A stretch of 64,000 nt of DNA from Acidobacteriota bacterium (GTDB taxonomy: Bacteria; Acidobacteriota; Thermoanaerobaculia; Multivoradales; UBA5704). Positions 7,744 to 42,106 of this stretch are shown in pieces (the stretch's first letter is position 1; each line of letters opens with the position of its first letter). The position numbers and the translations under genes were made by a program. The DNA is taken from NCBI GenBank assembly GCA_040005235.1, contig JBDTZG010000011.1, positions 32,001-96,000 on the forward strand, in the 5' to 3' direction. The notes beneath the pieces were generated by a model. That model was not told the origin of the DNA and did not search any database. It saw only the letters and a program-made list of their open reading frames with translations.

Positions 7744-10700
7744 TTACTGCCAATCCCCGTAAACCTGAAACGCCGCCCAGTAGTAGGGAGCGGAGGCGTC
7801 GAAGGGGTGCTTCTCGCCCTTCTCGTCCACGATCTCGATAGGGGCTTCGATCAACTCGCGCTGGGCCGCGCGCAGAGCTTCGTCCTTGGTCTTGCCCGCC
7901 CTCAAGTGGCGGTAGAAGCGGATCATCAGCTCGGCCGTAGCCTGGTCGTTGACGTTCCACAGGCTCGCCATCACGCTCCGCGCCCCAGCGTACTGGAAAG
8001 CTCGGGTAAGGCCGATCAGCCCCTCACCGCCGAGTTCCTTGCCCAGGCCGCTCTCGCAGGCGGAAAGCACCACAAGGTCGGCATCGATCCGCACCCGCTC
8101 GACGATCTCCCAGACCTGGAGGAGGCCGTTGTCGTGTGTGGGCTGGCTTTCGACTTCTGGAGTTTCCGCGGGCACGGTCAAGGCGATGAAAGAGCCGGAG
8201 GGCAGGTGCTCATCAATGCCTGCATGCGCCGCGAAGTGGAGGATGCGCGTCTTCGGGTCGAGGGTCTTCACCCGGTCCTCCAGAGCTTCGGCGCCAAGGA
8301 AGGTGCGGGTCGTCCCGGCAGGGAAAAGGCTCGCGATGCCTTCCACCTCGCGGCGGGTGTAGGGCAGGGGCTGGAAATCGAAGAGACCCCGCTCGGCGGC
8401 ACCACGGACGGTGGGATCGATCCGATCACTCTGAGGAGCTGCTGCCGCGAGGACGGTTTCCACGGGGACATCTTTGAGGGCTGCGAGGTGCTGGGGATAG
8501 ACGGGATCACCGAAGGCCGCCAGGAGAGGCGGTGCCTCTGCACCTACCCCGGAATCCGGTGGCCCTCGGCGTCGGTTCTTCAGTTCGGCGAACACGGTGG
8601 CCGAGAGGGCCACATGCAGGGGCTTCCAGGCGGCGAAGAATTGATCCTGCTCGCCTTCGGCAGAGGTAGCACGGTGAATGAGGGCACCGAAGGGCAAGGC
8701 ATGCAGCGGACCATCGGGGAGGATAAGCAGACGTTCGCTCGCGGCGATGCGCTCTGCGGCCGGCGCAAGCAGGAGGTCGAAAAGCTCGCGGCTCGCTGCC
8801 GTCAGCTGGTTCCTCCGCAGGGCCGCGACCGCTGAGTCTCCCCGTGCCTCGGGCAGGATAGTGAGGAGGTGTTGCACCTTGGCGCGAAGAGCCTCTTCGC
8901 CGAGCGGGATGTTGTATACCTCGAGGGCAGCGTCGTGACCGAGGGTGAAGAGAGCGGACTTGTCTTTGCCTACACTCCAGGAGAGAAGCAATGTGCCTGG
9001 GTCGAGGGCCAGGCGGGCGCGCTCGGCGTCGAGCGGCTCGGGGTAGCGCAAGGCAGCAAGACGGGGGGAGGCTTTGCGGATCTCAACCTCAATATCTCCG
9101 GCCTCGTCGTCGAGGCGGCGTAGTTCGATACGGGCCTCCTTGACCTCCTTCTCATGATCGCGGAGGTTGAGGCCGGCGAGCTTTCTTAGTGTGCGGTCGT
9201 AGAGCACCCCCACCCGACGCCGTTCTCGATCGAGTTCTTCCGGGATATCGCCTGAGAAAGCAATGTCTCGCTCGGAGAGCATTCCAAGGAAGGTTTGGGC
9301 TCGATAGCGTTCGAGGGTCTGGAAGGCTTCGACCTTTTGGTTCTGTGTGAGAAGGAGATCAAGGAAGTCGAAGTAGTAGGAACGGTGTTGGCTCTGGAAG
9401 CCCGCCTCGACGCTGTAGGAACCACCGAGACGGGTGAGTTGGTGGTCAAGGGCTTCGAGGGCACGGAGGAAGTATGAGCGGGCGAGTTCGACCCTGCCTT
9501 GAGCTCGCGTTACAACGGCCAGGTTCCTCAAGGTCGGGGCAGTGAGAAGGCTTCTCGGAGCCTCACGTTCCTGGATCTGTAAAGCACGTAAGTAGAGCGC
9601 CTCCGCCCGACTGAGGTTCCCTTGAGCGCTTTCAACCAACCCAAGGTTGAACAGGCTAGGAGCCACATCAAGACTGGAAGGAGCAAGTCGCTCTCTTAGT
9701 TGGAGCGCGCGCTCGTGGAAATCAGCAGCTGTTCGCCACTCCCCGAGCCTCTGCGCGATAATTCCTAAGCTGTCCAGGCATGTGGCTATCTCAAGGCTTT
9801 CCGTAGAGAGATCCTCGAGTCGCAATGCCTGGGCGTAGTAGGCACGTGCGGTAGCCAGGTCGTCCTGAGACAGTGCAATTGAGCCAAGGTTACTAAGGCT
9901 GACAGCGGAGTTTGTACCTTTAGGAGAGATCAGCTCTTCGAGGCGGAGTGCACTCAGAAGATAATCTTGGGCACGGGAAAAGTCCCCACGTTTCCGAGAT
10001 ACAACACCCAGGTTGTTCAAGGTAGTAGCCATCTCGCGGCCCTGGGGAGACAGATCCTGTTCGACCCTTAACGCCTCGCTGTGATAGCGGTGAGCTTGGT
10101 CGAGTTCGCCAAGATCGGACGCCGCAGTTCCTAAGTTATTGAGGAGCCCTGCCAATTGGAGGCTTCTGGGGGCCAACGCGCTTATGATCTCTAGAGCACT
10201 TGCGTAGTAATCTCGGGCCAATGGCAGCTCTCCTCGCGCCCAAGAGATTGCACCTAACCCGATAAAGTTATTGGCGACGCTGAGACTCTTTGGTGCGCGC
10301 TGCTGCTTGATCTCTAGAGAGCGAAGGTAGTAGTTACGCGCACGCTCAAGGTCGCCTTGACTCTGAGACAGAACAGCCAGATTGCCAAGGCTCCCAGCCA
10401 ACTCTAGGCTCCGAGGTGCCAGCTGTTCCTGTATCCGAAGAGCCTCCAGGAAGTAGTATTTGGCGCGATCAAACCTCCCGGTCGCCCACGCCACCACAGC
10501 AAGATTATTCAGGCTATTAGCCACACCTAGGCTACCGCCGGTGACCTCCTGTTGGGTCCTAAGTGCAAAGGAGTAAGCCGCTCGGGCCGCTTCATATTCA
10601 CTCAGCTGTTCCGAAGCTTCGCCTCGAGCCCCCCACCCAACCAACCTCGCTGTCACACTCTCCGCCCGCTCCACCCCCTCCTGCGCCAATTGTGCCGCCT

Positions 10701-11301
10701 TCCCCCACTCCCCCCTCACACCCCAAACCTCCCCGATTCGCAACAGCATCCATGTTTTCAAGTCCCGCGCATCGCTCTCCGGAACGGCATCGACCAGGGA
10801 ACGCCAGGTGGCCGCCGCCGCTTCCAGATCACCACCGTCCAGCTGCGCTTTGCCCCGCTCGTAGATCTCCTCCAACTCTGGCGCCAACACAGGACGCACC
10901 TTGGCCTCCCAGAGCCCCGGCTCGACGGTGAACTCCTTCGCCTCCTCGCCACGTCGTCCGGTGAGCACTACCGTGCCCCGCGGCGCCTGCTCGATCAGTA
11001 GCTCTTCCCAATCGAAGTAGCCCGCAAGAACGCCCTCCGCCGGCTCCGGGTTCGCAGGTGGGGCGGGAAGGCGCTTCCAGGAGAGGAGCACATCTCCGGC
11101 CTGCACACCCGCCTTCTCGAGCGTCCACCCACCCAACGACTCCACAACTACACCGGTGAGTTCCTCCGCCGTCGGGCTAGGTGATGCTTCGGGCGCCGCC
11201 AGTTCCTTCTGAACCGGTTGCGGGCTAGGGAACAGGAGGCAGGGGAAGAGCAGGGATGCAGCCAGGGCACGAGGAGACGAACCGCGGATCAACATGGGCA
11301 T
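7744..11301 (-). CDS. Signal-peptide PDZ-like/TPR/CHAT (caspase-like) protease
   Basis: CHAT motifs LLILPDGPLHALPF, ILHFAAH (His), VVLSACES (Cys), GLTRAFQYAGARSVMASLWNV.D, PYYWAAF; many TPRs. Start re-set to ATG 11301 with AGGAGG RBS, followed by a hydrophobic signal-like segment. Confidence 0.93.
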   Translation of the reverse strand: MPMLIRGSSPRALAASLLFPCLLFPSPQPVQKELAAPEASPSPTAEELTGVVVESLGGWTLEKAGVQAGDVLLSWKRLPAPPANPEPAEGVLAGYFDWEELLIEQAPRGTVVLTGRRGEEAKEFTVEPGLWEAKVRPVLAPELEEIYERGKAQLDGGDLEAAAATWRSLVDAVPESDARDLKTWMLLRIGEVWGVRGEWGKAAQLAQEGVERAESVTARLVGWGARGEASEQLSEYEAARAAYSFALRTQQEVTGGSLGVANSLNNLAVVAWATGRFDRAKYYFLEALRIQEQLAPRSLELAGSLGNLAVLSQSQGDLERARNYYLRSLEIKQQRAPKSLSVANNFIGLGAISWARGELPLARDYYASALEIISALAPRSLQLAGLLNNLGTAASDLGELDQAHRYHSEALRVEQDLSPQGREMATTLNNLGVVSRKRGDFSRAQDYLLSALRLEELISPKGTNSAVSLSNLGSIALSQDDLATARAYYAQALRLEDLSTESLEIATCLDSLGIIAQRLGEWRTAADFHERALQLRERLAPSSLDVAPSLFNLGLVESAQGNLSRAEALYLRALQIQEREAPRSLLTAPTLRNLAVVTRAQGRVELARSYFLRALEALDHQLTRLGGSYSVEAGFQSQHRSYYFDFLDLLLTQNQKVEAFQTLERYRAQTFLGMLSERDIAFSGDIPEELDRERRRVGVLYDRTLRKLAGLNLRDHEKEVKEARIELRRLDDEAGDIEVEIRKASPRLAALRYPEPLDAERARLALDPGTLLLSWSVGKDKSALFTLGHDAALEVYNIPLGEEALRAKVQHLLTILPEARGDSAVAALRRNQLTAASRELFDLLLAPAAERIAASERLLILPDGPLHALPFGALIHRATSAEGEQDQFFAAWKPLHVALSATVFAELKNRRRGPPDSGVGAEAPPLLAAFGDPVYPQHLAALKDVPVETVLAAAAPQSDRIDPTVRGAAERGLFDFQPLPYTRREVEGIASLFPAGTTRTFLGAEALEDRVKTLDPKTRILHFAAHAGIDEHLPSGSFIALTVPAETPEVESQPTHDNGLLQVWEIVERVRIDADLVVLSACESGLGKELGGEGLIGLTRAFQYAGARSVMASLWNVNDQATAELMIRFYRHLRAGKTKDEALRAAQRELIEAPIEIVDEKGEKHPFDASAPYYWAAFQVYGDWQ

Positions 11302-11464
11302 GGTCCTCCTGAGGAACAAAACGCGACGAAGAGCGGCCCCGTGGCCCACACGGTTCGAAATGGTCCACCCGGCCTCGAAAGAGCGCTTTTCCCTACGAGC
11401 CCAGATGACCTGCCGGGCTCGACCGTCAAGCGACGGTTCTTGCAAACTCTCACCGGAGGCTTTC

Positions 11465-12388
11465 ATGAAGCTGCACAAACTCCTCGCCCCTGCTCTCCTG
11501 CTTCTCGCCAGCGCTTCACCGCCCCTTGTCGCCCAAGCCGGCCATTCCCTCGACGCTGTCGATGGCAGCCCGGTCGATGCCGTCTTTGTGGACGCAAATG
11601 GAAACGTCGGTATCGGCACCCTCACCCCGGCACAGCCCCTCACGGTCGCCGGTGCTGTTCAGTCCACGGCGGGTGGGTTCATATTCCCCGACGGCACCAC
11701 GCAGTCCACAGCCTCGAACGGCGCGACAGGGGTGGCCGGTGGCGACCTCACGGGGACTTACCCCTACCCCACGATCCAGCTCAATCGCCACGTTCACAAG
11801 CTGGCGGGCTTCCAGGGGGACGTGCTTCTATATGGGGGAGCCGGCATATCGGTCACCTCAGGCGCGCAGGGGCCGATGATCACCGCGCGGCCGCCGGCCC
11901 TGCGATCTTGGAGCGTGCCCGTCTCCAGCCTCGCGCCCGTCCAGCTCGGAGCCGGGGGCCAGGGCGTCTTCTTGGCGCCCAGCTTTCCCATTCCAGTGCC
12001 CGTGTACTACTTCAATGAAGTCAATCCGGGTAGCACCTGGACCGCGGGCATCACCGCTCTTCCCAAGAACGGAGAGGTCGACAATCCGACCCTGACCATG
12101 GAGCTCTTCTGGATGACCAGCGTGGATGGCGGCGATGTGCGCTGGTGGGTGGACTACTCGGCGCGCGCAGAGCTGGCGAAAATGAATCTCGACGCCAGCG
12201 TGCAAGTCACGACGCCGGTCAGCAGCACCGGCAACGACCGCATCTACAAAACCACCATTCCGATCACAACGGGCTTTACCCCGAGTGATGAGCTTCTCGC
12301 CTTCAGTATCGGGCGCCAGAGTGGCTTCGACACCAATACCGGCAAGGTGGCCTTGCTGCAAATTCGGTTCACGTACAAGGCGCCTTGA
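11465..12388 (+). CDS. Secreted protein with tail-fibre-like GNVGIGT motif
   Basis: ATG 11465 after GGAGG; signal MKLHKLLAPALLLLASA; VFVDANGNVGIGTLTPAQPLTVAG..GFIFPDGTTQSTA and GDLTGTYP motifs typical of fibre/adhesin-like proteins. Confidence 0.7.
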   Translation: MKLHKLLAPALLLLASASPPLVAQAGHSLDAVDGSPVDAVFVDANGNVGIGTLTPAQPLTVAGAVQSTAGGFIFPDGTTQSTASNGATGVAGGDLTGTYPYPTIQLNRHVHKLAGFQGDVLLYGGAGISVTSGAQGPMITARPPALRSWSVPVSSLAPVQLGAGGQGVFLAPSFPIPVPVYYFNEVNPGSTWTAGITALPKNGEVDNPTLTMELFWMTSVDGGDVRWWVDYSARAELAKMNLDASVQVTTPVSSTGNDRIYKTTIPITTGFTPSDELLAFSIGRQSGFDTNTGKVALLQIRFTYKAP

Positions 12389-12511
12389 GTCCAGCACCTC
12401 CAGCGCTCGGCCGGAGAACGACCTTCACCGTGGGAGTCAGCAAATCATCTGGTTCGAATGCCGCGAGCGCCATTCTCGACGCTCGCGGCGGGACTGGAGG
12501 GTGGGCGGTAC

Positions 12512-12913
12512 TTACGCCGCCTTCGGAGCTTCCGCCGCCGCCCGGGCGGTGGTGACCGCCTGGTTGGCTTCGTTGCGTACCTTCAAGGCGGTCCTCTTCC
12601 GGGAGCGCACCTGGGGCCGGACACCGAACTGAATCAACCGTTCGTTGTCAAAACCGTAGTGCGCTTGAAGAATCGCGGCCAACTCGCGACGGATTCTCCG
12701 GCTTTCGTCGGTCAGCTCACGGCGACGTGCGGTTGCATCACGCAACTGACCGCGCAACATCTCCTCGTTGTCGTCGAACTGTTTGGCGCGGAACAGCAGG
12801 TCGGTCAAGGCCGTGTGCTTGTCCTTGCTCTGGGGCAGCTCTTCCAAAACCGACGTGAGGTTTGCGACCAACAGCTCCATGCGGCGAATGTTCTCGGCAA
12901 ACGATGAAGGCAT
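12512..12913 (-). CDS. Hypothetical alpha-helical protein (133 aa) with basic C-terminal tail
   Basis: ATG 12913 with GGAGG at 12919-12923; amphipathic helices; YGFDNERLIQFGVRP followed by RSRKRTALK. The longer track ORF extends into the non-coding repeat array. Confidence 0.75.
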   Translation of the reverse strand: MPSSFAENIRRMELLVANLTSVLEELPQSKDKHTALTDLLFRAKQFDDNEEMLRGQLRDATARRRELTDESRRIRRELAAILQAHYGFDNERLIQFGVRPQVRSRKRTALKVRNEANQAVTTARAAAEAPKAA

Positions 12914-12992
12914 AGGCACCTCCGGGGGGCAACGGCCGACCGGCATGGTCGAGCCGACTAAAAACTGCTGAGCGAGGGGATGCGGCTTAGTA

Positions 12993-13244
12993 GGGAATGC
13001 CTCTTTGAGCCGGCGGGAAGGGCATTCCCGGATGGCGGGAAGGCCCCTCCCTGGGGCAGGGAAGGCCCTTCCCAGCGACGGGGAATGCCCCTCCTTGGGC
13101 AAGGAAGGCCCTCCCGAGAAGCAGGGAAGGGCCTTCCCGAGGGCGAGGAAGGGCCTCCCCGGGTGATGGGAATGGCCTTCCCGCCGCCGGGAATGGCCTT
13201 CCTCGCAGCAGGAATGGCCTTCCTGGCGATAGGAATGGCCCTTA
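12993..13244. repeat. Array of 12 palindromic GGAA(T/G)GGCCTTCC-like cores with 8-9 nt variable spacers, period 21-22 bp
   Basis: GGAA starts at 12994, 13016, 13038, 13060, 13082, 13103, 13125, 13147, 13169, 13190, 13211 and 13232. Confidence 0.9.
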
Positions 13245-13313
13245 GGCTCAAGTTGCGGAGCGCAGAGCACGCCTTTATTGTGTTGGGCTACTTTCCGTGG
13301 TCTCACGCGGCGA

Positions 13314-13342
13314 AGACTAGGCGGAGACCTGCGTCCTGTCAA
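13314..13342 (-). promoter_or_regulatory. Putative sigma70 promoter TTGACA-N17-TAGTCT pointing into the repeat array
   Basis: Minus strand: TTGACA 13342-13337, 17-nt spacer, TAGTCT 13319-13314. Confidence 0.55.
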
Positions 13343-13398
13343 GCCATCGGACAAAAAAGTTGACTGGGGCTGTAGAACGAGGCTTCAGCGCTGCCGAA

Positions 13399-14301
13399 TC
13401 AAGCAAGCCAAAGCGCCGCCACCATCGCCACCCCTATGACGGCGTAAAGCGCCCGATACCGTGTCTGGAGCCGGCAGGTGCTCGCGTAGGTCAGGCCCTC
13501 GGCCAGGGCTTTAAGCGACCAGCGGAGGTGAAAGGGGTACAGGAGCATCAGGGCCGCGAGAGGACGGGGAAGGATGCCCTCGAAGGCCAGGAAGACGAGC
13601 AGCATGTAGGCCAGGGTGAAGAGAGCCAGGCTGGCGACGAAGGTGCGGCGTCGGCCGAAGATCACCGCGTTGGTTCGCACGGCATTGAGGACGTCGCCCT
13701 GGTGGTCGCGGATCTCTTGGATCAGGTGGCCGGCGGCGAAGGTCAGGCCGAAGAAGGCGGCCAGGGCGAGGCCGCGGGAGTCGATCGTTCCTCCCAGAGA
13801 GTAGCCGAGGAGAAAATGGAGCGCGCCGCCGGTCAGGTGGGCCGCGGAGCTCAAGAGCGGTTTGCCCTTCCAATCGAATCGAGGCAGGGAGTAGAGGGCG
13901 CTCAAAGCGGCGATCGCCAGGGACAGGAAGAGGGGAGTCGGTCCAAGCTGGCTGAAGAGGAAGAGACTTGAGCCCAGCAAGATGGCCATCAAAGCGCCGA
14001 TCTCGTGACGGCCGACTCCCCGCGCCGTGAAGACTCCCGCGGCCTTGTTGGGGTCGGCCAGATCGGTGGCGAGGCCGGACCAGTCGTTGAGCAGGAAGAT
14101 ATGCGCCACCAAAAGGAGGTTGGCGACGACGAGAAGGGCCAGGGGCGCCAGGTTTGCCGCCGTCGGGTGCCGGATCGCGAAAGCGGCACCCAGTAGCGGC
14201 GAACCTTGAAGAACGAGGATTTCCGGCAGGCGCAGGCAGGACAGGTAGCGTGCCGCGGAAGCTTTCGGGTTAGGGACGACTTGAGTGGGAATATTGATCA
14301 T
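13399..14301 (-). CDS. UbiA-family prenyltransferase
   Basis: Multi-pass hydrophobic protein with NDWSGLATDLADPNK and QEIRDHQGD acidic motifs and YSLPRFDWK (UbiA YSxP..K-like). Confidence 0.85.
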   Translation of the reverse strand: MINIPTQVVPNPKASAARYLSCLRLPEILVLQGSPLLGAAFAIRHPTAANLAPLALLVVANLLLVAHIFLLNDWSGLATDLADPNKAAGVFTARGVGRHEIGALMAILLGSSLFLFSQLGPTPLFLSLAIAALSALYSLPRFDWKGKPLLSSAAHLTGGALHFLLGYSLGGTIDSRGLALAAFFGLTFAAGHLIQEIRDHQGDVLNAVRTNAVIFGRRRTFVASLALFTLAYMLLVFLAFEGILPRPLAALMLLYPFHLRWSLKALAEGLTYASTCRLQTRYRALYAVIGVAMVAALWLA

Positions 14302-16981
14302 AGAGCCTTAGCCAAAGCGCGTAACCGACGTCTTCCGACCAGTAATAGCGGGAGACCGTCGCGGTGAGATCGTTGTGGTAAAGAAGCGGCGGAGCCTTCC
14401 GCAATAGAGCAAAATCGTCCTTGGAGACCTGACGCAAAATCGACTCGATCCGTGCCGCTTCGGCCGACGGACCGCCAGTTCGTCCGCCGCGCCCCAGAGA
14501 TCGGACGGTAGAAACCCAGATCTCCTGGTCCGGCACCGACGTACGCATCCGGGATTCGGGCAGCTCGATCTTGCAGCCGGCGCGCTCCAGGTCGGTCAAG
14601 CGCAAGATCGGTATCAGCGGCGCCTTTGAATAATAGACCCAGATTCGATCTTGATCAATCACCGTCCGGAGCGCCTTGCAGAGCGCGCGGCCGGCCGGCG
14701 GCTGCGCCTTGGACAGCAGCAGCAGCAAGTGCATCTGAATGGCGATGTCGGCGGGGTTGGGATCCTTGCCCGGATCCAGGCACTGGTAGGCCTCCCGCGG
14801 GGCGAGCCAGGTGCGGTAGAGCCCCTCGGGGGTGCGATATTGGGCGAGGGTGGCGAGAGCGGCCGAAAGACGACGGCGGTCGGAGTCGGGTGCGAGCCTC
14901 CAGACGAGCGCCGTGTCGTCGGAATCCGGCGTGATGGGGCACCCGAGGGTGCCGATTCCCGGGGCGTCCGGCAGGCCGTGGTATCGCACGAGGCCCCCGG
15001 CTTCGATCTGGCGGGTGAGGTGCCGCCGGGCGCGCTCCAAGCTCTCTCCGAGACCACCAGAGGTCGCCAGCGGATCGAGCAGCTCGACCAGGAGAGAGGT
15101 GAGGAAGGTGTTCATCTCGGGGTGCGGGTCTTCGAAGCGGGCCGCCTTCGTGTAGGAGGTCAGCCAGTACCCCGGCTCTTGCTGGTGCTCGCGAACCCTC
15201 GCCGCCGCCGTCTTCGCGAGATCCGCGAGGTCCCCGCCTTCGAGCGGCGTCGCCTTTCCTCCCTCTCGCTGGCCGGAAGGTTGGCCGGAAAGCTGCCCGA
15301 TGCGGCCCGGCGGATTCTTGCCGCCCGGCGCGGCTGCTGCCTGTACGGTCAGCTTGCGCTCTCCCAGGTAATACCCCTCGCCGCTGCCGGAGGCCCAGGC
15401 GAAGGCGGTCAAGTGGTGCTCGCCGGAAGACAGGCCGGACGTATCGAGTGGGATGCGCCAGCCGGCGGGACTTGACGCGCGCTGCGCGGCGCGGAGGTCG
15501 GGCCGGTCGAAGAAGGCGCGGGAGGCGACGAGCGGCTGGCCATCGAACGAGACGGCCACCTGCTTGGGCGTCGCCGAGCCGGCCAGCGCCCAACCGACGG
15601 CGACGATCTCCTGGCCGGCGGTGATGGCGGCCGTCGCCCGGCCTCCCGTCTCGATCGCTTCGAGATCGCCTCCCATTTCGATCCATAGCTCCGCCGGGGC
15701 AGGGCCATGCCGCAAGGCGGCGACGAACGGCGCGTTTCGCCAGTCCCACGCGGAGGCAATCAAACCGTCCGTCGCGCTGATGTACCAGAAGGCCCCAATG
15801 ATTTCGATGGCGACCGCCAAGCCCACCGCGACCCCGAACAAGATCCGGCCGAGTACGCGCAACGAGGTGACGACCGGTACCAGCATCCAAAAGAGCATCG
15901 GCAGGAAGTCGGTGAGATAGCGCGAGCCCCAGTAGATGCCGGTCCGCCAGTCGGTTTTGGCGTAGAGCAGGATCTGGAGGACGACGGCGATTCGGAGCGC
16001 CAGGGCGAGGCCGCGGTCTTCCGGCGGCAGCCGCCAGGCCAGGACGAGGAAGAGCAGGAAGGGCGAGAAGATGAACAGCCCCCGCGTCGGGCTGAACAGC
16101 AATCCGCCGAGACCGGACCCCAGGTCATGGCGAAAAAAGGCGGCCCTGCCCATTCTGCCGTACGCCCCGGCGAAGTTGTGGGCCACGCCGAGGTTATAAA
16201 GAAGCACCAGCCCCATCGGCAGCGCCGCGGCGGCGACGAGCAGCACCGCTTTGCGTCCGGCCCAGAACAGACCGTAAGCACCCAGCGCCGCCGCGAGGAG
16301 GGCGTCGGGAGGGCGGTTTCCGGCGAGGAGCCCGCACAGCAAACCCACCGCCAGCACCCGCGGCCAGGTGGCCGGCCCGGTGAGAAGCAGCAGCGCGCCG
16401 ACCACCAGAAGCTCGGCCATCCCATGCTGCCAGAGGGCCTGGCTGCCGATCATCCAGGTGGTGGTGCCAAAGGCATAGGCCAGGGTGAGGAGCACCGCGA
16501 TCGAAACCGAGGCCCGGCGCCGCAGAAGCAGGTAGAGGAGCGACGCGGAGAGCGCCGCCACGAACGAGGCGCAGAGCTTCTCCATCACCCGGGCCACGTG
16601 GTCCAGACGCGCATCCGTCCAGCCTTTCAGGTTCAGGTAGCCGACCGCGGGAAGGTAGAGCGGCGCAAGAAGCACCGGCAGCACCACAGGATAGAGCGAG
16701 ATCGTAGGGCCTCCGGGCAACGGCACCATCCAGAACGGCGCATCGCCTCGGCCCTGGGCCGTGAGCCGAACGATCGGATCGAGAAGAACGCTGTGATTGC
16801 GCCAGATCGAGAACGGCAGGTAGCGCGCGGGGTAGGTGTCGCCGGCACTGATCGCCCGCCCGTTGGCGTTGTAGACCAGCAGACAGCAGAGCCCGATGAG
16901 CAGGCTCGCCCACAGATCACGAGACCGCTTTGTCGACGTCGGGTCCACCTGGATGCGAGTCAATGCACTACCCCCGGACAT
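14270..16981 (-). CDS. Fusion of a GT-C-like polytopic membrane domain, an Ig-like domain and a C-terminal class II terpene-cyclase-like domain
   Basis: N-terminal TMs with GT-C-like motifs (LFSPTRGLFIFSPF, WGSRYLTDFLP); GWA...GW...LDTSGLSSGEHHL Ig-like segment; C-terminal QQEPGYW and PDSDDTA (DxDDTA). Confidence 0.65.
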   Translation of the reverse strand: MSGGSALTRIQVDPTSTKRSRDLWASLLIGLCCLLVYNANGRAISAGDTYPARYLPFSIWRNHSVLLDPIVRLTAQGRGDAPFWMVPLPGGPTISLYPVVLPVLLAPLYLPAVGYLNLKGWTDARLDHVARVMEKLCASFVAALSASLLYLLLRRRASVSIAVLLTLAYAFGTTTWMIGSQALWQHGMAELLVVGALLLLTGPATWPRVLAVGLLCGLLAGNRPPDALLAAALGAYGLFWAGRKAVLLVAAAALPMGLVLLYNLGVAHNFAGAYGRMGRAAFFRHDLGSGLGGLLFSPTRGLFIFSPFLLFLVLAWRLPPEDRGLALALRIAVVLQILLYAKTDWRTGIYWGSRYLTDFLPMLFWMLVPVVTSLRVLGRILFGVAVGLAVAIEIIGAFWYISATDGLIASAWDWRNAPFVAALRHGPAPAELWIEMGGDLEAIETGGRATAAITAGQEIVAVGWALAGSATPKQVAVSFDGQPLVASRAFFDRPDLRAAQRASSPAGWRIPLDTSGLSSGEHHLTAFAWASGSGEGYYLGERKLTVQAAAAPGGKNPPGRIGQLSGQPSGQREGGKATPLEGGDLADLAKTAAARVREHQQEPGYWLTSYTKAARFEDPHPEMNTFLTSLLVELLDPLATSGGLGESLERARRHLTRQIEAGGLVRYHGLPDAPGIGTLGCPITPDSDDTALVWRLAPDSDRRRLSAALATLAQYRTPEGLYRTWLAPREAYQCLDPGKDPNPADIAIQMHLLLLLSKAQPPAGRALCKALRTVIDQDRIWVYYSKAPLIPILRLTDLERAGCKIELPESRMRTSVPDQEIWVSTVRSLGRGGRTGGPSAEAARIESILRQVSKDDFALLRKAPPLLYHNDLTATVSRYYWSEDVGYALWLRLYDQYSHSSRP

Positions 16982-17988: not shown

Positions 17989-20010
17989 ATGGCCAATCTC
18001 GTTTGTCGTCGCCTCCAGCGCGTTCTGTTCGGCGTTCTTCCCTTGTTCCTCTCCGTCGCCAACGCCTCGGCGGCCAGCCCTCCGGCTTCCCCGCCGACCC
18101 CCGTAAAACTCGTCGTCGTGGTGGTGGTCGATGGGCTGTCGTGGCCGCGCCTTGATGGCTACCGCAGCTGGCTCGACGGCGGGCTCGCCCGGCTGCTTTC
18201 CGAGGGGCAGGTCGAGACCGAGTGCCGCTACGCGCATTTGAATACCGAGACCGGCCCGGGGCACGCCAGTCTGGGCACCGGGGCGCCGCCGCGGGTGCAT
18301 GGCATCGTTGCGAACCGGTGGTTCGAGGCGAACCCGAACGGCCAGGGGCTGCGCCGTCTCTATTGCACCGACCAGCCCGACCTCGGGCGGGTTCCGGGGC
18401 AGCCGCCGCTGTTCTACCGCGAGGTGGCGAGCGACGGACGGATCTACGTCTTCGCCCGCCAACGGGCACTCGACCTCTGGCGGCTCTCGGGCGAGATCGG
18501 CAACCAGGCGACGACCCGGATCGGCGAGGGGCCGGCCGGCGAGTCGATCGTCTTCGACAGCGACGACGCGATCGCCCTTTACAACCTCCATCACGGCCGG
18601 CCCGAGGAGAATCTGCCGCCCTCCGGCACTGTCCCCGGCCCGGCGAACCTGCGCGTCGCAACGCTCGGCGACCGGCTGATCGAGTCGAGCCCGGAATCTC
18701 GCGTGGTCGCGTTTTCAGGCAAAGACCGCGGCGCAATCTTTCTTGCCGGCAAGGACCCCCGCCATGCGGTCTATTGGTACGACCGGGACGCCGGCCGCTT
18801 CGTCAGCTCGACCGCGTTCGACCAGGACGGCCTCTGGGGCGGGGCCGTGCGCGACTTGGTCAAGAGGTTCAACGGGGCGAGCGCGGGCGCGATGCTGCCG
18901 GGCCGCTTCGGCCTGCTGTGGAGCCCCCTGCCCGAACCGGCCAACGCGGCGTCGCTGCCTGCGCCGGAGCCCAACCTCGGCCGGTTTCAGACCCCCGACC
19001 TGGGGATCGGTTTCGGTGATTTCGGCCATGACCTGACCGGCGACCCTCGCGGTTATTTCGGCGGCATCTACGACAGCCCGTACCAGGACCAGCTGCTCGC
19101 CGACCTGGCGCTTGCCGCGCTCGCCGATCCGGCGCTTAAAGTAGGGCGTCGCGGCGTGCCGGACCTGTTGGCGCTTTCGTTCTCCGCGCACGACGTGGTG
19201 TCCCACGCCTACGGCAACGAGTCGGCCGAGGAGCTCGACGCGCTTCGCCGGCTGGACCGCCAGCTCGGGCGCCTTCTTTCGGCGCTCGACGCTCTCGCGG
19301 CCGAGGCGCCCGCGGGCCGGGTGGTCCTTGCCCTCTCCGCCGATCACGGCTTCGCTCCGCTTCCCGAAGTCGCGCGGCGCCGGGACGCCCGGCGGTTCGG
19401 CGGCCGGCTGATGAGCGACTCCGCTCCCGAGAGCGTTTTCCCGAGCTTCCAGGAGCGCCTCAACCGGGCGCTCTCCGAAGAGCTCTGCCTCGCCCCGGGG
19501 AGCCAGCCGATCTACGGTTCTGAGGGGTGGATCGTCGCCTACGATCGGCCGACGTTTCCCAAGCTCTCGGTCGACGGCCCGTGCGGGCCGGCCGGGCGAA
19601 CGGTGACGGTGGACGACCTCGATCGGGTATTCCCGGTCGTCGTCCGGCGCCAGTTCGGCGAGGAGATCCAGGAGGTGCTCCTGGCCTCGCAGCGCGACCG
19701 CTGGCCGGCCGACGATCCGGCCGTCGCCTTCGCGCAAAACGACTGGGACCCCTCCCGATCGGGCGACGCTTTTCTGATTCCGCGCGAAAACGTCCTGATG
19801 CATTGGGACCCCGAACGCGGTTCGGGCCATGGCTCGCAATACGACTACGACACCCACGTGCCGCTGATCTTTTGGGGCTCGCCCTTCCGCTCCGGAGCTC
19901 GTTCCGAGCCGAGCGCGCCTTACGATCTCGCGCCGACGCTGGCGGAAATCCTCGGAATCCGCCTTCCCGACGCGACGGGAACCTCTCGTCTCCCTTCGGC
20001 GGGGAAGTAG
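17989..20010 (+). CDS. Alkaline phosphatase-superfamily enzyme (PafA/PhoK-like), exported
   Basis: VVVVDGL, TETGPGHASLGTG (Thr nucleophile), KDRGAI, HDVVSHAYG, SADHG, GHGSQYDYDTHVPL; signal peptide after ATG 17989. Confidence 0.9.
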   Translation: MANLVCRRLQRVLFGVLPLFLSVANASAASPPASPPTPVKLVVVVVVDGLSWPRLDGYRSWLDGGLARLLSEGQVETECRYAHLNTETGPGHASLGTGAPPRVHGIVANRWFEANPNGQGLRRLYCTDQPDLGRVPGQPPLFYREVASDGRIYVFARQRALDLWRLSGEIGNQATTRIGEGPAGESIVFDSDDAIALYNLHHGRPEENLPPSGTVPGPANLRVATLGDRLIESSPESRVVAFSGKDRGAIFLAGKDPRHAVYWYDRDAGRFVSSTAFDQDGLWGGAVRDLVKRFNGASAGAMLPGRFGLLWSPLPEPANAASLPAPEPNLGRFQTPDLGIGFGDFGHDLTGDPRGYFGGIYDSPYQDQLLADLALAALADPALKVGRRGVPDLLALSFSAHDVVSHAYGNESAEELDALRRLDRQLGRLLSALDALAAEAPAGRVVLALSADHGFAPLPEVARRRDARRFGGRLMSDSAPESVFPSFQERLNRALSEELCLAPGSQPIYGSEGWIVAYDRPTFPKLSVDGPCGPAGRTVTVDDLDRVFPVVVRRQFGEEIQEVLLASQRDRWPADDPAVAFAQNDWDPSRSGDAFLIPRENVLMHWDPERGSGHGSQYDYDTHVPLIFWGSPFRSGARSEPSAPYDLAPTLAEILGIRLPDATGTSRLPSAGK

Positions 20011-20073: not shown

Positions 20074-21522
20074 ATGCGGATGACGGGCCTCGGCAAACTT
20101 TTGCTCTTTGTGATCGGCCTCGCGTTGGTGGCGACGGCGATCTTCCGCTTCGGTCCTTCGCTTTGGCGATCGAGCGGTTCCCGCCTCGGCGCTTCGGACG
20201 CCCCGGGATCGACATCGGCCGGATCGACGGCCGGATCGACAACGGCGGCAGGCTCCGGTGCCGTGCCGCGCTTGCGCCTTCATGGTTCGAACACGATCGG
20301 GAGCGATCTCGCGCCGGCATTGGTCGAGAAGTTCCTGAACCGGGAAGGCGCCACGGGCATCCATCGCGTACCCGGCGCGGAGGACGAGGTCGCCGTCGAG
20401 GGTCGGCTGCCCGGCGAAAGCGAACCGGTCGTGGTCGAGATCGCGGCGCACGGCTCCGGCACGGCGTACGAGGACCTGGCGGCAGGCACCGCGGACATCG
20501 GCATGTCGTCGCGCCGCATCAAGCCGGACGAGAAGGTGCGCCTCGCCGCCTTGGGCGACATGACGTCGGCCGCGGCGGAGCATGTGCTCGGCTTGGATGG
20601 CGTGGCAGTCATCGTCTCTCGCGCCAACCGGCTCGAATCGCTGACGCTCGACCAGATCCGCGACCTGTTCTCGGGGCGGATCGCCGACTGGTCGTCGCTG
20701 GGCGGCCCGGCGGGACCCGTGCAGATCTACTCCCGCGACGACCGCTCGGGCACGTTCGACACGTTCAAGAGCCTGGTGCTCCGCGACGCGACGCTCGTAT
20801 CGAGCGCCAAGCGCTACGAGGACAGCCGCAAACTTTCTTCCGATGTCGCTGCCGACCCGCGGGGAATTGGATTCGTCGGCCTGGCCTACGTCGGCGACGC
20901 CAAGGCGCTCAAGGTGTCGGAGGAAGGTTCGGTTCCCTACCGGCCGACCGTGTTCACGGTCCGCACCGAGGACTATCGCCTGTCGCGGCGGCTGTATCTC
21001 TACGTTTCCCCGGCGTCTGCGAACCCTTGGGTCGGCAAGTTCGTCCAGTTTGCGCTTTCCGATGAGGGCCAGGCGGTGGTCGACGCCGTGGGCTTCGTCG
21101 GCCAATCGCTCCTCAATCCGGTCCAAGAGGCCGCACCGGCTCTGCCCACCGAGGTGCCGGCCGAATACGCCCGCCTAACCAAGGGTTCGACCCGGCTGCC
21201 GCTCGTCTTCCGTTTCGAGACCGGTAGCGACCGGCTGGACAACAAGTCCCTGCGCGACATCGGCCGCCTGCTCGAAAGTCTGAGCCAACCCGCCAATCGC
21301 GGCCGGCGGGTACTCCTCTTCGGCTTCGCCGATTCGCTCGGCAGCCCCGAGGCCAACCGCCGGCTGTCCGGCGCCCGGGCCACCGCGGTGGCCGGCGAGC
21401 TGCGCTCCGAAGGAGTGGAGGCCGAAGCGGCGACCGGTTTCGGCTCCGCGCTCCCCGTGGCCTCGAATGAGACCGAGGAGGGGAAGGGGAGAAATCGGCG
21501 CGTGGAGGTCTGGCTCAAGTAG
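20074..21522 (+). CDS. PstS-like phosphate-binding domain fused to an OmpA peptidoglycan-binding domain
   Basis: HGSNTIG, DIGMSSR, SRDDRSGTFDTF, then GFADSLG...NRRLS..RA...NRRVE; N-terminal TM anchor. Confidence 0.9.
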   Translation: MRMTGLGKLLLFVIGLALVATAIFRFGPSLWRSSGSRLGASDAPGSTSAGSTAGSTTAAGSGAVPRLRLHGSNTIGSDLAPALVEKFLNREGATGIHRVPGAEDEVAVEGRLPGESEPVVVEIAAHGSGTAYEDLAAGTADIGMSSRRIKPDEKVRLAALGDMTSAAAEHVLGLDGVAVIVSRANRLESLTLDQIRDLFSGRIADWSSLGGPAGPVQIYSRDDRSGTFDTFKSLVLRDATLVSSAKRYEDSRKLSSDVAADPRGIGFVGLAYVGDAKALKVSEEGSVPYRPTVFTVRTEDYRLSRRLYLYVSPASANPWVGKFVQFALSDEGQAVVDAVGFVGQSLLNPVQEAAPALPTEVPAEYARLTKGSTRLPLVFRFETGSDRLDNKSLRDIGRLLESLSQPANRGRRVLLFGFADSLGSPEANRRLSGARATAVAGELRSEGVEAEAATGFGSALPVASNETEEGKGRNRRVEVWLK

Positions 21523-41681: not shown

Positions 41682-42106
41682 GTTGCGATCCAGATCTGGA
41701 AGGTTCGGACCAAGCTCTAGGTCGTCTCGATCCAGGTCCGGACGACTCGGATCCAGGTCTGAACGGTCGGGACCGAGGTCTGAGCCGTGAAATCCAGGTC
41801 CGGGCGACTCAGGACTGGATCCGGACCGTTGCGATCCAGGTCCGAATGGCTCAGACCTAGGTCTGGTGTATCGCGATCCAGGTCTGGACGACTCAGACCA
41901 AAGTCTCGTGTGCCGCGATCCAGGCCGGACGACTCGGTCCCAGGTCTGAACGATCGGGACAGAGGTCTGGACCGTCGCGATCCAGGTCCGGGAGACTCAG
42001 AACTAGATCTCGTGTGTCGCGATCCAGGTCTGGACGACTCAGACCACGTTCTCGTGTGTCGCGATCAGGGTCCGGTCGGCTCGGACCTGGGTCCCGACCG
42101 TTGCGA
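41682..42106. repeat. About 20 degenerate 21-bp tandem units with palindromic GAYCNNGRTC core and a 42-bp higher-order alternation
   Basis: Unit starts at 41687, 41708, 41729, 41750, 41771, 41791, 41812, 41833, 41854, 41875, 41896, 41917, 41937, 41958, 41979, 42000, 42021, 42042, 42063 and 42084; two 1-bp slips. Confidence 0.9.

Follow-up and report, generated by a model that had tools for sequence, protein, structure and literature searches.

The locus analyzed here lies on the minus strand of a 64,000-nucleotide stretch of the genome of an Acidobacteriota bacterium (contig JBDTZG010000011.1, positions 32,001 to 96,000; hereafter the window). Between positions 13342 and 12512, a promoter is followed by an array of 12 short palindromic cores, a hairpin, a GGAGG motif and an open reading frame (ORF) for a 133-aa protein. 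An initial annotation of this DNA had claimed a TTGACA-17-TAGTCT promoter pointing into the array. This candidate sigma-70-type promoter (13314..13342) was indeed found: TTGACA occupies 13342-13337 and, after a 17-nt spacer, TAGTCT occupies 13319-13314. In the ortholog of the locus, located in another Thermoanaerobaculia metagenome-assembled genome (MAG; locus L022), both hexamers are kept (TTGACA-17-TAATCT) and 36 of 49 promoter columns are identical. A consensus promoter scanner left the element unflagged, because the -10 hexamer fits the consensus at only 3 of 6 positions.

The array (12994..13244, minus strand) is composed of a 13-nt dyad-symmetric core with the consensus GGRRnGSCnTTCC and a unique 8-9-nt spacer, repeated with a period of 21/22. 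When the invariant TTCC was taken as the end of the unit, the start-to-start spacing of the 12 cores from 13244 to 12994 was 21, 21, 21, 22, 22, 22, 21, 22, 22, 22 and 22. The same period of 21/22 was obtained with Tandem Repeats Finder (TRF), and a repeat finder reported 10 copies 21-22 apart. Units 2-4 are mutually identical (GGAAGGCCATTCC), the final unit is degenerate (AAAGAGGCATTCC) and no two spacers are alike, in agreement with the initial annotation, which had described unique spacers, three identical cores near the promoter and a decay toward the gene. In the 64-kb window, GGAAKGSCMTTCC with at most 1 mismatch matched 11 times, 10 of these inside the array, whereas 0.49 matches were expected, and 0 of 100 shuffles attained 11 matches, so the array cannot be put down to chance. 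Across the 6.2-Mb genome, the exact core motif was located 7 times (6 in the array of the window and 1 in an array on contig C24) and is therefore almost unique to this locus within the genome. Contigs of two DNA runs, perhaps the source of the same DNA, were identical over 12400-13450, without polymorphism in unit number. A search of Rfam at E up to 1 over positions 11500-14500 returned only sub-threshold miRNA-like chance matches on the array.

As 21 nt equal 7 codons, the array could also encode an N-terminal heptad-repeat extension of the protein. A 280-aa ORF runs from 13354 in frame into the gene; it is open through the array (12512-13354), and six 22-nt steps restore the frame. However, open frames are common at 66% GC, and all homologs, ~120-150 aa long, keep the GGAGG-ATG start at their residue 1. 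The mixture of 21 and 22, for which the initial annotation had dismissed a protein repeat, changes the peptide repeat along the array, and many sister arrays have a period of 20. On the last two grounds the coding explanation was rejected, and we regard it as extremely improbable.

Between array and gene lies a hairpin (12933..12956, minus strand) with an 8-bp stem, one bulged U and a 5-nt loop, about 10 nt before the GGAGG ribosome-binding site (12919..12923), which itself is located 5 nt ahead of the ATG at 12913. In L022 the stem is kept and the loop changed. A scan of 12300-13500 for intrinsic terminators returned 0 sites, and, lacking a T run, the hairpin is not a canonical terminator. 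By eye, a short hairpin 10-20 nt ahead of the ribosome-binding site (the equivalent region of the window being 12915-12990) recurs in most paralogs with differing stem sequences, e.g. GACCGG...CCGGTC and GGGCCGCATTTCGCGGyCC, and was found even in members without an array.

The gene itself (12512..12913, minus strand) encodes a protein without a match to any known family. Searches against Pfam, NCBIfam, PHROGs and PADLOC gave only coiled-coil noise, a profile search of the PDB returned coiled-coil chains only, Foldseek found no match in the PDB at E up to 0.001, and a wide fold search with VIA-align reached at best Z 7.0, with generic helical hairpins only. Matches in the ESM Atlas came solely from unnamed Acidobacteriota clusters. 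AlphaFold2, run with 70 homologs, predicted an all-helical protein without any beta strand (predicted local distance difference test (pLDDT) 88), with helices at residues 5-22, 27-86 and 91-96 followed by a basic tail. The long helix is rich in arginine, and the best-conserved residues (P27, L36, G87, L93, G97 and P100) lead to a GFxxExLxxFGxxPR motif at its end. The hairpin, the GGAGG site and the helical, basic-tailed protein of the initial annotation were all confirmed. Compared with the ortholog in L022, protein identity is 92%, and identity at the first, second and third codon positions is 94%, 98% and 84%, indicating that the gene is under purifying selection.

When two copies of the protein were modeled together, the interaction prediction score from aligned errors (ipSAE) was 0.59, compared with 0.00 for the best control. 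Among 30 proteins whose solved structures are pairs, 20 attained this mark, as did 1 of 23 whose solved structures are single chains. Contacts agreed between runs to at least 95%, and the pLDDT of the partner was at least 84. Contacts such as those of residue 78 with 32/36 and of residue 53 with 53 indicate antiparallel packing, and the model supports the view that the protein forms an antiparallel homodimer.

In an exhaustive search of 1.84 billion representative proteins, 225 homologous clusters were found at E up to 0.001 and 23 at E up to 1e-10. Nearly all of the 225 are 105-200 aa long, and the named relatives are hypothetical proteins of Thermoanaerobaculia or Acidobacteriota. Within a phylum sample of 401 genomes, in which 10 candidates per genome were scored, matches were confined to the source genome and one genome of the same family. 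Using an iterated hidden Markov model on 66,250 six-frame ORFs, 27 family members were detected in the source genome (G000); within the same bacterial family, a genome of the same genus (G511) has 32, and two genomes from outside this genus have 25 (G455) and 7 (G357). The family is unannotated, lineage-specific and expanded, and has no known family or fold relative.

The association of gene and array is not restricted to the window. An array of period 20-22 (or a multiple thereof) was detected by TRF within 1.5 kb upstream of 17 of the 27 members in G000. TRF overlooks degenerate arrays; several array labels were assigned by eye, which added degenerate arrays at C8:99736, C69 and C99. When 560 nt had to contain at least 20 repeated 9-mers, a more stringent measure, 10 of the 27 members scored, compared with 3.6% of 3000 random windows of this length. 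Every gene-linked array of this genome has its own distinct unit and core, and related units were found in the close paralog pairs C56/C106, C118/C18:24284, C107/C126 and C8:55803/C8:99736.

In the three related genomes, 22 of 30 loci carry a palindromic 20-22-nt array on one side of the gene. By TRF, 11 of these loci have the array upstream, 11 downstream and 8 have none; the 9-mer measure gave 10, 12 and 8, respectively. The G000/G511 clades have their arrays upstream, whereas those of the G357 clade and of one G455 clade are downstream. When array position was mapped on a maximum-likelihood tree built from 54 members, 4 changes sufficed, against a mean of 11.4 after shuffling, and 0 of 500 shuffles were as low; three partial G000 rows (C4, C35 and C67) were left out of the tree, and six of its upstream labels rest on weak TRF rows or inspection by eye. 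Three of five G511-G000 ortholog pairs of at least 78% identity retain the array type. A canonical intrinsic terminator (9-11-bp GC stem and T run) separates the stop codon from the array in 10 of 13 downstream-type loci, which means that the array there is not the leader of the gene. At the G357 locus L005, for example, the order is an ORF resembling DCoH, the family gene, the terminator, a period-20 array and a convergent gene.

Viewed from the arrays, the family is the only recurrent gene that is led by a ribosome-binding site and points away from the 127 arrays of at least 80 nt in the source genome. The linkage was seen in four genomes and several MAGs, and the pairing of gene and array is recurrent, with some thirty occurrences per genome, in one family of soil bacteria. 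That homologs of the protein should be scanned for arrays had been proposed by the initial annotation; they carry their own 20-22-nt palindromic arrays, even downstream beyond a terminator. At one G455 locus (L052, contig C426, oriented positions 1963-2545), the downstream array spans nearly 600 nt with a period of 21 and forms a large inverted repeat with reverse-complementary halves (CGATGGACACACACATCG... and then GTGTCCATCGAGCCGATGTGA...).

Several other ORFs were observed near family genes. An ORF similar to DCoH (pterin-4a-carbinolamine dehydratase) lies immediately upstream of the family gene at four G000 loci (C10:~20600-21060, C123:~12210-12560, C69 and C52) and at L005 (980-1351), where it replaces or precedes the array. 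Two of these ORFs were compared with PF01329 and scored 28.5 and 36.3 bits (cut-off 26). Eukaryotic DCoH binds a helical dimerisation domain, and by analogy the DCoH-like protein could be a partner of the family protein. Five of the 27 members (C139:~19320-19865, C52, C132, C20 and C67) have, at a distance of at most 3 kb, an unannotated ORF of ~180 aa that resembles helix-turn-helix (HTH) proteins. It adjoins the nearest paralog, on C139, directly downstream and is accompanied in 3 loci by another unannotated ORF of ~190 aa; Pfam matched neither of the two. At C69:25325-25570, ~700 nt downstream of the member at C69:24263-24652, lies a fragment of a Y1 (IS200/RAYT-type) transposase, one of 11 such matches in the genome.

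To compare the arrays of the window and L022, they were aligned unit by unit (12 versus 14 units). Identical columns amounted to 133 of 156 in the cores (85%) and 49 of 95 in the spacers (52%; Fisher p = 1.4e-8). Core identity is about that of third codon positions (84%), with spacers and leader far lower, so the contrast between core and spacer may partly reflect turnover of units rather than constraint site by site. Nevertheless, the uniformity of the cores beside spacers that all differ points to selection acting on the core.

The initial annotation had left two alternatives, namely a leader of roughly 390 nt that is bound or processed unit by unit by the protein, or a DNA array of phased palindromic sites. 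As RNA, the array could act as such a leader of mini-hairpins, in the manner of toxin-antitoxin (TA) systems of type III, or as a separate CsrB-like sponge that titrates the protein. The promoter conserved upstream of the array in the window and its ortholog implies that the array should be co-transcribed with the gene, and the long helix is rich in arginine. The order of promoter, repeats, hairpin and gene fits the criteria for type III systems, and one toxIN locus with repeats downstream has been reported, both according to the available portion of the source (PMC3401426). On the other hand, the protein is all-helical and does not match ToxN/AbiQ, and units of 21-22 nt with 4-6-bp stems differ from the 36-nt pseudoknots of ToxI.

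Strand preference was also assessed. In 13 gene-linked arrays the sense strand folded better than the antisense strand in 6 (global) and 7 (local) cases (Wilcoxon p 0.59 and 0.31), and mismatches in the core arms were of the G.U type in 18 and of the A.C type in 22 cases (p = 0.64), i.e. without G.U excess; since the units of an array depend on one another, both tests are low in power. A bias of the kind expected from selected sense-strand RNA hairpins is shown by neither. The centers of the cores were then considered in periodic cores picked by their outer four pairs only; looser picking gave as many centers in random DNA, and the stricter version was used. In 74 odd-centered cores the two innermost pairs were complementary in 78% and 77%, compared with 28% and 30% in 957 random palindromes. 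Since the pairs beside a single central base cannot form in a hairpin, this palindromy, which continues through the position of the would-be loop, points to dyad sites in double-stranded DNA. The strand and center results, combined with the terminators ahead of downstream arrays, make a cis-acting leader RNA unlikely as a family-wide mechanism; the hairpin ahead of the gene, devoid of a T run, also speaks against the RNA explanation. We consider action of the array as RNA, whether as leader or as sponge, improbable. The leader processed unit by unit is not supported across the family, as the protein does not resemble ToxN and not every array is upstream of the gene or co-transcribed with it, and of the two alternatives the phased DNA palindromes tied to the protein are favored.

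To place the locus in its genomic context, TRF was applied to the whole genome, a draft assembly in which many arrays lie at contig ends. It yielded 212 rows with a period of 21 and 71 with a period of 20, whereas periods of 19, 22 and 23 accounted for 10, 14 and 8 rows. These merge into 259 loci, 127 of which are at least 80 nt long. The arrays are intergenic, with 1 of the 127 possibly inside a gene, and 113-114 have no family gene nearby and stand beside ordinary genes. Core 11-mers in common with a gene-linked array were found in 32 of 114 gene-less arrays, and 8 family members have such sisters. Arrays of a 41/21-bp type elsewhere in the genome have 11-mers in common with the array of member C8:55803. 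The sister of the array in the window (C24:76282-76479) has a period of 22, with GGGAAGGCCCTTCCC alternating with GGGAACCCCCTTCCC, and is flanked by genes for a YHS-like secreted protein and a formate-dehydrogenase-like protein. The initial annotation had named cores scattered genome-wide beside unrelated genes as a finding that would count against a dedicated system. One same-core sister array beside unrelated genes and a genome-wide class of arrays were indeed found, so that this expectation is borne out in part; we read them as possible trans targets and not as a disproof. Among 151 genomes of the class, the core family GATAGCSGCTATC (period 20) is confined to G000 and its congener G511. 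A search of the literature found no description of a class of phased palindromic intergenic arrays.

A second tandem array in the window (41831-42075, period 42/104, unit GTCGCGATCCAGGTCCGGAAGACTCAGAACAAGATCTCGTGT) has no family gene adjoining and belongs to the 'GACCTGGATCGCGAC' array family, which is also present on C126, C99, C131 and C33. Furthermore, eight arrays of the genome, mostly of the GCTGGCCCAGC type with a period of 21, are located directly 3' of genes for HTH(XRE)-TPR regulators of ~450 aa, including those at C137:2614-4180, C18:145589-147431, C124:4-1565 and C85:12018-13634.

This array class gives rise to the main rival explanation, in which other factors, or none at all, read the arrays, and gene and array are simply inherited together. 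They would then be genome-wide intergenic palindromic repeats, similar to repetitive extragenic palindromes (REP) and bacterial interspersed mosaic elements (BIME) or to minisatellites, or sites of other regulators such as the HTH-TPR proteins; the small protein would not read them, and the linkage would stem from duplication of the module or from the gene being a regulated target. The many arrays without a family gene, the eight behind HTH-TPR genes, the HTH-like ORF near 5 of the 27 members and a family protein without a DNA-binding domain are all in line with this. Conversely, the family is the sole gene found repeatedly next to arrays, no other regulator is consistently adjacent, and the linkage holds in four genomes despite divergence of the paralogs to 25-35% identity and the shift of the array from upstream to downstream. 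A link to REP-associated tyrosine transposases (RAYT) was considered and found unsupported, as only 2 of the 11 PF01797 (Y1 transposase) matches in the genome have a 20-22-period repeat within 3 kb. On balance we judge the repeat explanation unlikely, if still to be taken seriously.

The reading that we favor, tentatively and with slightly less than even confidence, is that the family consists of dimeric proteins that bind DNA, the gene of each lying next to an array of phased sites for its product, in the manner of iterons or centromeres and without membership in any known family. The 133-aa protein would bind cooperatively to one site after another in the double-stranded DNA of its array, along one face of the helix, on dyad-symmetric sites of ~13 bp spaced two DNA helical turns (20-22 bp) apart. 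With the array placed between promoter and gene, its occupation would act as a graded roadblock, so that the gene at the locus in the window may repress itself according to how much of the array is occupied. The same protein may also occupy the same-core sister array on C24 in trans.

Apart from the low power of the two strand tests, several observations weigh against this. Between 5 and 10 of the 27 paralogs in G000 have no array, and in 60 even-centered cores the innermost pairs were complementary in 38% and 30%, without palindromy through the center. About 80 of the 114 gene-less arrays are without a cognate family gene in the draft assembly, so other factors must read many of the arrays. 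For the 57 of 127 arrays whose flanks could be classified (70 being left unclassified), the flanking genes were convergent in 19, tandem in 25 and divergent in 13 cases, and the 19 convergent cases do not fit simple control of promoters. What is predicted for the protein is a helical hairpin or coiled coil of a generic kind, without a recognizable DNA-binding domain. Shared ancestry by itself could keep gene and array linked, and cores can diversify through concerted evolution within arrays without co-evolution of the protein.

A bolder extension of DNA binding by the family, which we hold to be possible but rather doubtful, is a modular 'address' system of a kind not seen before, evolved in one family of Thermoanaerobaculia. 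Dozens of paralogous coiled-coil dimers without a known DNA-binding domain, each with a private core, would polymerize on arrays phased at 20-22 bp, with the cognate array beside the gene and same-core arrays scattered over the genome, giving a new kind of nucleoprotein filament that marks, insulates or bridges more than 100 intergenic sites. If DNA binding holds true, the coiled-coil dimer with its GFxxExLxxFGxxPR head and basic tail would be a new scaffold for DNA recognition. In individual genomes, this scaffold would have undergone an about thirty-fold diversification of specificity, providing natural orthogonal pairs of protein and site array, and it would account for more than 100 strictly phased palindromic intergenic arrays in these soil Acidobacteriota. 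Even if binding fails, an unannotated family of 225 clusters linked to arrays that move between upstream and downstream positions is a robust regularity that needs explanation.

Downstream of the stop codon of the gene in the window, a strong GC-rich hairpin (12460..12489, minus strand) with a 12-bp stem and no T run begins 23 nt past the stop. It has a z-score of -3.0, 0 of 200 shuffles fold equally well, and the terminator scan does not flag it; it is a possible transcript end. The neighboring genes comprise UbiA, a CHAT-TPR protein and unknowns. Located 3' of the small gene, a large CHAT-domain protein with many TPR repeats (7744-11643, minus strand) converges with an ORF on the plus strand (11294-12388) for a secreted-looking protein of 364 aa without Pfam match. 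As the two ORFs overlap as listed, the true start of the CHAT gene probably lies further in.

Finally, the locus was compared with known systems that combine repeats with an adjacent gene. CRISPR arrays consist of ~23-50-nt repeats that alternate with spacers of similar length and are accompanied by cas genes. The 13-nt cores and 8-9-nt spacers of the present array, without Rfam CRISPR match in 11500-14500, do not fit such an array; no cas genes are among the neighbors in the window, where the check ended, as no genome-wide cas search was made. In TIGR-Tas systems, a Tas protein with a Nop domain adjoins the array. This assignment does not fit either, as Pfam found no such domain in the 133-aa protein or its neighbors; one TasR chain (Z 6.5) was among the generic helical fold matches of the protein. 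REP and BIME elements, as far as covered by the accessible text of PMC3333891, form many families of short GC-rich palindromes that are intergenic and often clustered. The arrays described here share with them the short palindromes confined to intergenic regions, but are strict head-to-tail tandems with a fixed period of 20-22 bp and are linked to a gene family that does not encode a transposase.

Type III TA systems (ToxIN, CptIN and TenpIN) have a Kid/MazF-like endoribonuclease as toxin and RNA repeats that form 36-nt pseudoknots, according to the same portion of PMC3401426. The locus in the window resembles them in its order of promoter, tandem repeats, palindromic hairpin and gene. It differs in its coiled-coil protein, for which Pfam, NCBIfam and PADLOC gave no match to a ToxN/AbiQ-type or other toxin, in its palindromes of 21-22 nt and in a hairpin without T run. 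Moreover, the repeats are upstream in the window, as in type III loci, but downstream in 11-12 of the 30 loci of relatives, where arrays lie behind a terminator. A type III assignment is therefore unlikely, failing on toxin fold, type of unit and gene order across the family.

Iterons of plasmid Rep proteins measure 17-22 bp and are phased at about two helical turns; Rep is a winged-helix protein, and SopB is an HTH protein of the ParB type. In sopC, direct repeats that each contain a short inverted repeat are bound by the product of the adjacent gene, as the consulted extract of PMC5016525 describes. SopB-sopC and Rep-iteron systems are thus similar to the present locus in having phased direct repeats with an inner inverted repeat beside a gene. 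They differ in that no HTH or winged-helix domain was matched here and in that no replication or partition genes are nearby.

A further likeness in layout is to the partition proteins omega and ParR, which are ribbon-helix-helix proteins and work with a ParA or ParM NTPase on plasmids. The available part of PMC5016525 describes omega of pSM19035 as a small dimeric protein that occupies several arrays, its adjacent iteron arrays parS1-3 overlapping promoters, with an affinity that depends on the number of iterons, and parC as consecutive tandem repeats situated immediately upstream of the operon. As in these partition centromeres, tandem repeats of short sites adjoin the gene of a small, in our case putatively dimeric and DNA-binding, protein. 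In contrast to omega and ParR, the 133-aa protein is predicted to form an antiparallel coiled coil without beta strand; no family match to ribbon-helix-helix or HTH proteins was obtained, and its fold matches are generic helical ones at Z 7 or less. No partner NTPase of the ParA, ParM or TubZ type was recurrent within 3 kb of the 27 members (by ORF clustering, with 5 neighboring ORFs scanned against Pfam). The units, of 20-22 bp with a 13-bp palindrome, differ from the 7-bp heptads of omega, and the modules are chromosomal, with ~7-32 per genome. The protein scaffold is new compared with omega, ParR and SopB, has no recurrent NTPase and is present in dozens of chromosomal copies.

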